Assembly (NCBI GenBank): GCA_964388035.1
Contig: CAYLZE010000021.1
Location: forward strand, 1 to 59,600
Source of the DNA: an uncultured archaeon
Lineage (GTDB): Archaea > Asgardarchaeota > Lokiarchaeia > Sigyniarchaeales > SOKP01
Reading direction: 5' to 3'
Length of the DNA stretch: 59,600 nucleotides
The notes beneath the pieces were generated by a model. The model saw only the letters and a program-made list of their open reading frames with translations. It was not told where the DNA came from and did no database searches. Below are positions 40,673 to 41,749 of this stretch, in pieces. Position numbers and translations under genes: made by a program. How positions within the stretch are numbered: the first letter of the stretch is position 1; every line of letters begins with the position of its first letter.

Positions 40673-40716
40673 TTCTTCAAATAAATTTCCTTTAGGCTTT
40701 TTTTATTTGAATCATT
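40673..40716 (-). promoter_or_regulatory. Putative SECIS element (eukaryote/Loki type) in the 3' UTR
   Basis: Minus strand: A-AUGA-UUCAAAUAAA-AAAAGCCUAAAGGAAA-UUUAUUUGAA-GA-A. Perfect 10-bp stem flanked by AUGA/GA, with unpaired As at the start of the loop and a CC/GG mini-stem. Confidence 0.8.
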
Positions 40717-40727
40717 ATTAGGATTTT

Positions 40728-41651
40728 TCACTTGCAATCTTTGGATTCTTTCGTGTTAAATTTAATGAAAGCTATTTCTTGTTCATTTCTTTTACTAGAT
40801 TTGACCGAACGATTGACTTGGCTTAGAAATTTCATTGCATTTTTCTTCCCTTCAATTATATTTTGAATAAGCTCCTCTTTACTAAATCCACCAGAATTGA
40901 CTAAAGCAGTTTGGAAAGATTGATTGGGTTCCAGAGTTTTAAATTCGATTTGTAAAGCCGACAGTAATTCTTCAGGACCCTCTTGGATTTTATTTGATAA
41001 GTGTAATTTATCGGGATTAATATCAAAATCTCTGGTGGGAATTGCTTCATAATGGGTTGGATTTGAAATGGTTGAAAATCCGCCATGTAAGCCCGTAGCA
41101 TCGTATTGATAAATTATATGGTTCTCCTCATCATATCCCGCATAATCGGTATCGAATCCCTCCAAGCCATTTATATCAAAATCAAAGATGAAATACATGG
41201 AAAAGTCTCTTAGATTGTAATCAGAAATATTTTTTAATGTAAAAAAGGTATTCATGTAGGGCACTTTTGGTTTTAAGAAAATATCTATATATAAACGTAT
41301 CGTGGATTGTTTTTTTTTGAATTTCACGGGTTTCAGCTTTCCTTCACGTACTAATTTCTTTAAATACTCTTTAATATCGAAATCGAGCGTGATTCTATCA
41401 ATAGCTAAACCTTTCCGACTATTGACCAATTTATAAATGGGAGTCGGCTCAATGTTTTTAAGGATCACGGGTACATCGCCAACGTCCTTGCCATGCATGA
41501 TAAAGCTGAACCAAGGTCCCGAATGCTCTTGTTCAGCCATGTATAACAAATAACGTTCCTTGTATTTCAGCTCTTTAATTGAAAATCCCATCAAGTATCC
41601 TTGTGTATTTCATAGGGCGAAAATTTCGTTGAAAGCTACTTTTAGAACTAT
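40728..41651 (-). CDS. Candidate selenoprotein (307 aa, Sec at codon 14), beta-rich, possibly a GH15 N-terminal/mutarotase-like supersandwich
   Basis: SD AAGGAGGT 41667-41660, ATA 41651, in-frame TGA 41612-41610, continuous with the 288-aa track ORF, SECIS-like element downstream. The fold call is a by-eye resemblance only. Confidence 0.7.
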
Positions 41652-41749
41652 TTTGGTTTACCTCCTTATATTTTTAAATTAAAATTAAATAGAAAATGTT
41701 CTTCAAGAATGAAAAAATTATCTTATAGAAAAAAGTAATCCTAATAAAA

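Follow-up and report, generated by a model that had tools for sequence, protein, structure and literature searches.

The locus described here raises a simple question: does a gene filed as a 288-residue hypothetical protein in an Asgard archaeon, one of the closest microbial relatives of eukaryotes, begin upstream of an in-frame UGA, and is that codon read as selenocysteine (Sec)? The whole stretch of DNA analysed, referred to here as the window, is 59.6 kb long; it is contig C21 of a genome of 5.47 Mb, with completeness put at 96.7% and contamination at 7.3%. On its minus strand, a Shine-Dalgarno (SD) site, AAGGAGGT (41660..41667), is followed after 8 nt by an ATA codon (41649..41651), the probable non-canonical start according to the comparison of homologues. 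With the ATA counted as codon 1, 13 codons separate the 5' end of the gene from a TGA (41612-41610), and six codons on from this lies the start of the 288-aa open reading frame (ORF), TTG 41594. The full gene (40728..41651) would encode a 307-aa selenoprotein and ends in a second UGA (40728..40730), 12 nt 5' of the core of a hairpin in the 3' UTR. The positions of the SD site, ATA, TGA, ORF, stop and hairpin, as proposed in a sequence-only reading of the window, all check on the minus strand. That reading had also held that the ORF start has no SD site comparable to the upstream one; a small correction is that a weak AAGGA (41602-41598) is found 6 nt 5' of an ATG at 41591; this stems from the Gly18 codon and is not conserved in homologues. 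Its further remark that two other genes of the window carry single nonsense codons was not reproduced by same-frame scans. Close homologues are annotated as Promethearchaeota/Lokiarchaeota hypothetical proteins of 285-292 aa.

Comparison of homologues indicates that the gene almost certainly encodes a 307-residue selenium-containing protein. We put at about 95% the probability that UGA14 is read as Sec through a eukaryote-like SECIS element in the 3' UTR, in a mostly single-copy family conserved in Lokiarchaeia, Thorarchaeia and one further Asgard family. When 400 Asgard genomes were searched with a profile, the gene turned up in 123 of the 134 that belong to the window's own family, f1 (about 92%), and the f1 matches listed have one TGA each, except for five intron alleles. 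Codon 14 is TGA in 57/57 intron-less f1 homologues read, with zero entropy in the 52/52 that were codon-aligned; the terminal stops of these are 43 TAA, 5 TGA and 4 TAG. It is likewise TGA in 30/30 Thorarchaeota, 3/3 f21, 3/3 f4 and 1/1 f3 genes, almost all of them with CxxU, and in the sister family f2 the position is Cys in 10/10 ATG-started CxxC genes. In a 31-row alignment of the whole family, position 14 is the sole invariant Cys/Sec column; TGA or Cys is found there, never Trp, Arg or Gly, and the N-terminal extension is conserved, both as the selenoprotein reading had anticipated. Since the homologues are related, these counts are not independent events, and the tree requires only two label changes.

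Coding constraint was found on both sides of the UGA. The synonymous share of single-base codon differences is 0.67 in codons 2-13 and 0.77 in the body of the gene, against 0.16 upstream, and two residues encoded after the UGA and ahead of the first downstream start, Gly18 and Tyr19, never vary, while the third positions of their codons are free. Public marsh metagenome contigs overlap the TGA with no difference listed, only one of them extending past it by more than 31 nt in each direction. The idea that the terminal UGA is read through as well was rejected: TAA or TAG stands at the terminal stop in 47/52 homologues, so that this UGA is taken as the true stop. A match in G342 containing "1 TAA", considered as a counter-example, was also rejected because that allele contains an intron.

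The intron alleles come from five genomes in the genus g11 (G322/G325/G328/G342/G347), with inserts of 28, 29, 31, 31 and 32 nt at the Sec codon. These are predicted to be BHB introns spliced from the mRNA one base after the Sec codon (L205:239-267, L206:256-286, L207:1103-1130, L208:238-268 and L209:1098-1129); each has two 3-nt bulges flanking a central helix of 4 bp, which is conserved. When the inserts are cut out in the canonical way, one base 3' of the UGA, the reading frame is restored in 5/5 of these relatives; since none of the insert lengths is divisible by three, the body must be joined to the short frame upstream of it. Such predicted restoration of the frame is independent support for the upstream frame. 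The window's gene itself is without an intron.

Translation is likely to start at the ATA, as judged from the homologues. No in-frame ATG, GTG or TTG lies between the upstream stop and the TGA of the window's gene. Codon 1 is ATA in 41/52 homologues, whereas internal Ile codons are ATA in 33% of cases; a same-genus genome has ATG there and others ATT or ATC, and a nearby ATG, GTG or TTG is found in further genera. Sequence conservation starts at codon 1, in-frame stops are common just upstream of it and absent from codons 1-13, and a GGAGG-type site precedes it at similar spacing in most of 30 homologues. ATA as a general start is unsupported: it follows 6 of the 117 strong SD sites in the genome, several of them doubtful, and because it is uncommon there the ATA start looks specific to this gene. 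One might speculate that the weak start keeps a selenium-costly protein at a low level. A sigma-70 promoter scan came out at chance level, with a model that is ill-suited to archaea.

The eukaryote-like, type II SECIS element (40651..40724, minus strand) consists of a lower stem, an AUGA core (40715-40712), a 10-bp upper stem, an A-rich loop with a mini-stem, the GA (40675-40674) and an accessory hairpin (40671-40655). It exceeds the earlier drawing: a three-way junction is closed by the lower stem together with a short accessory hairpin that follows the GA. Taken alone, the hairpin is weak evidence: its folding is modestly above chance (z -2.3 to -2.8), a loose AUGA-stem-GA pattern occurs at 58 places in the genome, and an Rfam scan of the gene region gave no SECIS family match. 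The weight therefore falls on conservation and on an independent covariance model, trained solely on ten VhuD lokiSECIS elements from related genomes. This model ranks 40715-40650 first in the 59.6-kb window, at 23.5 bits and E 4e-4, the next match having 11.3 bits. The stem is 99.6% paired in 28 f1 homologues, with two compensated pairs, and two other f1 homologues have a different stem sequence in the same layout. In Thorarchaeota, 8/8 pairs have changes on both sides (covariation), and the stop codon itself makes the AUGA, as described for VhuU along with the rule that lokiSECIS elements lie close to the UGA (PMC4989117). Judging by this pairing and the model match, the 3' hairpin is a real SECIS.

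The element was also predicted to follow the TGA alleles, and it does so: it was found in f1, Thorarchaeota, f21 and one f4 gene, is degenerate in two f4 genes, and none of the nine Cys alleles scanned has the pattern. Because some genuine elements in divergent loci escaped the VhuD model, absence at the Cys alleles rests on the looser pattern scan. A GC-rich model trained on the Thorarchaeota elements finds the window's element at E 1.3 and misses the genome's VhuD elements. Its best match in the window, 37556-37624 on the minus strand (12.7 bits, E 0.003, with an imperfect stem), lies in the gap between a 226-aa and a 435-aa gene, is absent from the VhuD-model matches and is probably due to chance. 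The accessory hairpin just 3' of the GA, with its three-way junction, is conserved among Asgard SECIS elements (L139-L158 and the Thorarchaeota loci L061-L090), known VhuD ones included; no description of it was found in PMC4989117.

The genome contains the Sec machinery whose presence the sequence-only reading had called for, namely SecS, EFSec, PSTK, a Sec-containing SelD and tRNA-Sec. The SecS match is above the curated cut-off, and the EFSec-like factor (7e-70) and the PSTK-like kinase (2e-44) are both below theirs; the SelD gene has an in-frame TGA, and four Sec-VhuD genes with SECIS elements were found. Directly upstream of SecS lies a tRNA with a UCA anticodon (G000:C6:~4081-4170, plus strand), which yields a cloverleaf when a 31-nt insert is excised from its T-loop. 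A T-loop intron has been described for the Loki tRNA-Sec (PMC4989117), and it accounts for the low RF01852 score: a search of the genome with RF01852 missed the tRNA, which was found by a pattern search. The tRNA gene adjoins SecS here, compared with a position near EFSec in the first Loki genome.

The proposal that the gene is not a selenoprotein at all takes several forms: the UGA could be a genuine stop that ends a leader peptide of 13 codons, translation re-initiating at codon 20/21; it could stem from a sequencing error or lie in a pseudogene; or UGA could be generally reassigned. In favour of this, 52/52 family homologues have an ATG at codon 21, and database annotations give proteins of 286-289 aa. 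Set against this, the TGA never turns into TAA or TAG, ATG-started homologues align a Cys with it, codons 15-19 evolve under constraint on the protein, the SECIS goes with the TGA allele and strand 1 of the predicted fold lies in the extension. TGA also ends 22% of the long ORFs in the genome, so there is no generic code change. We regard this proposal as very improbable. A minor re-initiated isoform may exist besides the Sec form. The claim of a selenoprotein is strongly supported, and none of the refutation tests that could be run went against it.

The protein itself was expected to be beta-sandwich-like, and this is borne out by models and structure matches. Two AlphaFold models, with a mean pLDDT of 88, have a galactose-mutarotase-like beta-supersandwich followed by a helical linker and a flexible tail. 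Their best matches are the non-catalytic N-terminal domain and linker of GH94, GH15, GH116 and GH65 enzymes (VIA Z 18-21, rmsd 2.6-3.4 A, 214-237 residues over 1-281, 10-14% identity), and the Cys homologue gives the same matches as the window's protein; mutarotases score Z about 12-13. Strand 1 of the sandwich lies within the N-terminal extension and Sec14 at the tip of the first hairpin. The Sec14 loop and the C-terminal tail have low confidence in both models (pLDDT 49-61), which would be compatible with mobility. Pfam and NCBIfam gave no family match for the protein, and look-alikes in the Atlas are unnamed Promethearchaeota and Thorarchaeota clusters. The acidic motif F-D-F-D-I-N-G (residues 156-162; 41166..41186, minus strand) is conserved, and D157, D159, G162 and D169 are invariant or nearly so in all lineages; the 31-row alignment has no conserved His or Glu column. 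A D-F-D-x-x-G supersandwich core without the CxxU hairpin was also noted in P0156, P0162 and Thorarchaeota ORFs of 1400-1500 aa; the proteins of which it forms a domain are large and apparently secreted, and come from Asgard, Nanoarchaeota and Hydrothermarchaeota.

The sole Cys of the window's protein, Cys306 (40734..40736, minus strand), is a candidate resolving or ligand cysteine; it is invariant in 57 f1 homologues and also present in f2 and f4 homologues. The statement that the protein has no CxxU redox motif holds for the window's gene and fails for the family: CxxU is found in Thorarchaeota, three other families and one genus (f1-g9) of f1, and CxxC in f2. The C-terminal tail is absent from Thorarchaeota and f21, which carry CxxU. 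A second Cys is in the tail only in the main part of f1, at -3 only in Thorarchaeota and f21, and at both places in f1-g9, f4 and f2; one or the other is kept in every full-length gene read except one (Thorarchaeota L073). The window's gene has lost the first Cys of the family motif CxxU/CxxC and kept Cys306.

In an unrooted tree with an unresolved base, a single supported clade unites the f2-type Cys genes, next to three groups with Sec; the direction of change was probably Sec to Cys. Two single-contig f2 genomes of 4.32 and 6.04 Mb have the Cys form, and f2 keeps SecS. Strong full-length matches are found in Asgard families with SecS and not in the large SecS-negative family f10 (0/31) or in f17, f19 and f27; f3 (one genome, 66% complete) has the gene with no SecS match, and f5, f13, f18 and f24, which are SecS-positive, lacked full-length matches. 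Because the distribution tracks kinship, it amounts to few independent events. A Roadblock-Ras-like GTPase gene (41750..42709, minus strand; Pfam) lies directly upstream, as it does in 19 loci from f1 and f2, and is not adjacent in Thorarchaeota, f21 or f4 loci. The window's GTPase is 40-69% identical to those neighbours, compared with 31-35% to full-length paralogues; a complex prediction for the Cys homologue with the neighbouring GTPase reached no verdict, at a score of 0.00, and carries no weight here. No reductase partner is conserved next door among the loci compared. The f21 gene is two genes away from SecS: the homologue (L092:3394-6075, G097; L091) is followed by a GcvH-like gene, so identified by eye, and a convergent SecS gene, and the f21 SECIS overlaps the end of the coding sequence. 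In f3 and a CxxCxxC relative (L042:1645-3726; L204:6001-8213), a VWA-domain protein comes next, or is possibly fused across an N gap.

What, then, might the Sec do? We give roughly even odds to a cytoplasmic thiol/selenol redox protein, on the basis of sequence patterns and models, in which Sec14 would be resolved as a selenylsulfide by a neighbouring or tail Cys. Sec14, on the exposed hairpin tip of a non-catalytic supersandwich scaffold, would react with a disulfide, an oxidised thiol or a selenium species carried by a partner or ligand that the sandwich binds, and the product would be resolved as a selenylsulfide by Cys11 (CxxU, as in Thorarchaeota) or by Cys306 on the flexible tail, as in the window's gene. 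This redox reading is favoured by the complementary pattern of the second Cys, proximal or distal; we infer that two interchangeable partner cysteines would fit a selenylsulfide cycle better than a fixed multi-ligand site. Counting against it, the fold is not thioredoxin-like. 2-Cys peroxiredoxins and MsrA are enzymes with a distal resolving Cys, and the present family may work in a similar way with its alternative distal Cys, although it does not have the MsrA fold. It likewise resembles the CxxU/UxxC thiol oxidoreductase selenoproteins, by analogy, in having CxxU in most lineages and exchangeable Cys/Sec, but lacks their thioredoxin fold. Redox proteins that have CxxU/UxxC motifs make up the majority of prokaryotic selenoproteins (PMC13188914).

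A metal site remains a strong alternative, though a less probable one: the CxxU knuckle and the tail Cys would bind Zn, Ni, Fe or an Fe-S cluster, possibly bridging two subunits. CxxCxxC occurs in the divergent relatives P0137, P0141 and P0154, f2, f4 and f1-g9 members have three Cys/Sec residues, and a hairpin tip bearing CxxC and then Gly has the look of a metal knuckle. In NiFeSe hydrogenases Sec coordinates Ni, and the Fe-S proteins HdrA and VhuD contain Sec too (PMC13188914). The window's clade and Thorarchaeota, however, each keep two of the three residues, and different ones, with no conserved His as a further ligand. Selenium handling for the Sec pathway (a carrier, store or sensor, with splicing control at the Sec codon in some relatives) is clearly less probable still. 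The near-confinement of full-length matches to SecS-bearing families, the proximity to SecS in f21, the retention of SecS in Cys-form f2, the weak start codon and the BHB intron at the UGA in five relatives would all suit it; SecS adjacency is nevertheless limited to one family, the distribution follows kinship, and the four SecS-positive families named above are without a full-length match. Most doubtful among the functional proposals is an enzyme that acts on a sugar, in the manner of a mutarotase, epimerase or glycosidase, or else a partner of the Roadblock-GTPase that is switched by its redox state. The supersandwich is common to carbohydrate enzymes (Z 12-21), an acidic D-x-D motif is conserved and the GTPase orthologue is directly upstream in the 19 loci from two families. 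Yet the best matches are the non-catalytic N-terminal domains of GH94/GH15 with the catalytic barrel absent, the conserved His/Glu pair of mutarotases is missing, and the GTPase is not adjacent in the other three lineages.

The features of the gene can be set beside known systems. With the Asgard lokiSECIS/eSECIS-like genes (SelD, HdrA, VhuD/FrhD, VhuU/FrhA, Prx-like, AhpF-N and DsbA-like; PMC4989117, PMC11227280) it shares UGA recoding, a 3'-UTR AUGA...GA element close behind the stop and apical adenines, as well as the stop overlapping AUGA in Thorarchaeota and an accessory hairpin as in the genome's VhuD elements. Unlike these seven families, it has no protein match among them, a type II element with a 16-18-nt loop, a non-ATG start, a Sec near the N-terminus and, in some relatives, a BHB intron at the Sec codon. 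GH94 phosphorylases, GH15 glucoamylase/glucodextranase, GH65 and GH116 (PDB 8rf9, 1ulv, 1lf6, 1v7v and 2cqs) have the same N-terminal supersandwich and linker; the window's protein, in contrast, stands alone, with no (alpha/alpha)6 catalytic barrel and none encoded as a conserved neighbour, and its family adds the CxxU/C hairpin and the C-terminal Cys tail. Aldose 1-epimerase (galactose mutarotase) is a stand-alone supersandwich of similar size, but its structural score is below that of the GH94/GH15 domains and its conserved catalytic His/Glu are absent here.

Asgard selenoproteins have previously been searched by homology to known families, with seven found (PMC11227280), and the lokiSECIS model of PMC4989117 gave no further candidate; a 2026 review counts 119 prokaryotic selenoprotein families, 11 of them archaeal (PMC13188914). 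Compared through profiles, table and fold, the protein matches none of the 119 families (PMC13188914, Table 1) or the seven Asgard families (PMC11227280), and no description of the family was found in the open-access literature. The early UGA, non-ATG start and longer SECIS loop plausibly explain why it was missed. This is a known recoding system on a new protein family and fold. We tentatively propose an Asgard-specific selenoprotein family ancestral to Loki- and Thorarchaeia, in which selenium chemistry is carried on a glycosidase-type supersandwich with a swappable proximal or C-terminal Cys, and as many as three unusual steps control synthesis: initiation at a non-AUG codon, UGA recoding that depends on the SECIS and, in certain lineages, endonuclease splicing of the BHB intron.

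Found in most Thorarchaeota searched and in about 92% of f1, the family would rank among the most widespread Asgard selenoproteins, and the Asgard selenoproteome would be under-counted. It would place Sec on a fold not described for any listed family. Its numerous natural SECIS variants, which like the VhuD elements have an accessory hairpin on the 3' side, bear on how a SECIS functions in the absence of SBP2. A further prediction is that Asgard archaea use non-AUG initiation and mRNA splicing.

Further selenoprotein candidates were noted in the same genome. A second candidate new family (G000:C9:105622-106150, plus strand; L181:1123-1620; homologues L185-L203) has a domain of ~110 aa, S-S-S-U-G-U-U (G-C-U-U in paralogues), about 35 codons and then a canonical lokiSECIS. 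The tandem UGAs and the SECIS are kept in nearly all homologues read, and the gene was matched in 24/25 family genomes, with no Pfam match. Additionally, two small ORFs on minus strands, G000:C6:94720-95067 (L179:1224-1568) and G000:C124:7660-8040 (L180:1161-1541), each have a single in-frame UGA that follows a hydrophobic strand, with a lokiSECIS downstream of the stop; they look HesB-like by eye, with no significant Pfam match, and HesB-like selenoproteins are not among the seven Asgard families. Two further canonical lokiSECIS elements, at G000:C9:~15487 (minus strand) and G000:C90:~1750 (plus strand), had no obvious long UGA-containing ORF in the scan and probably belong to tiny selenoprotein genes, one of them behind an hdrB-like gene.
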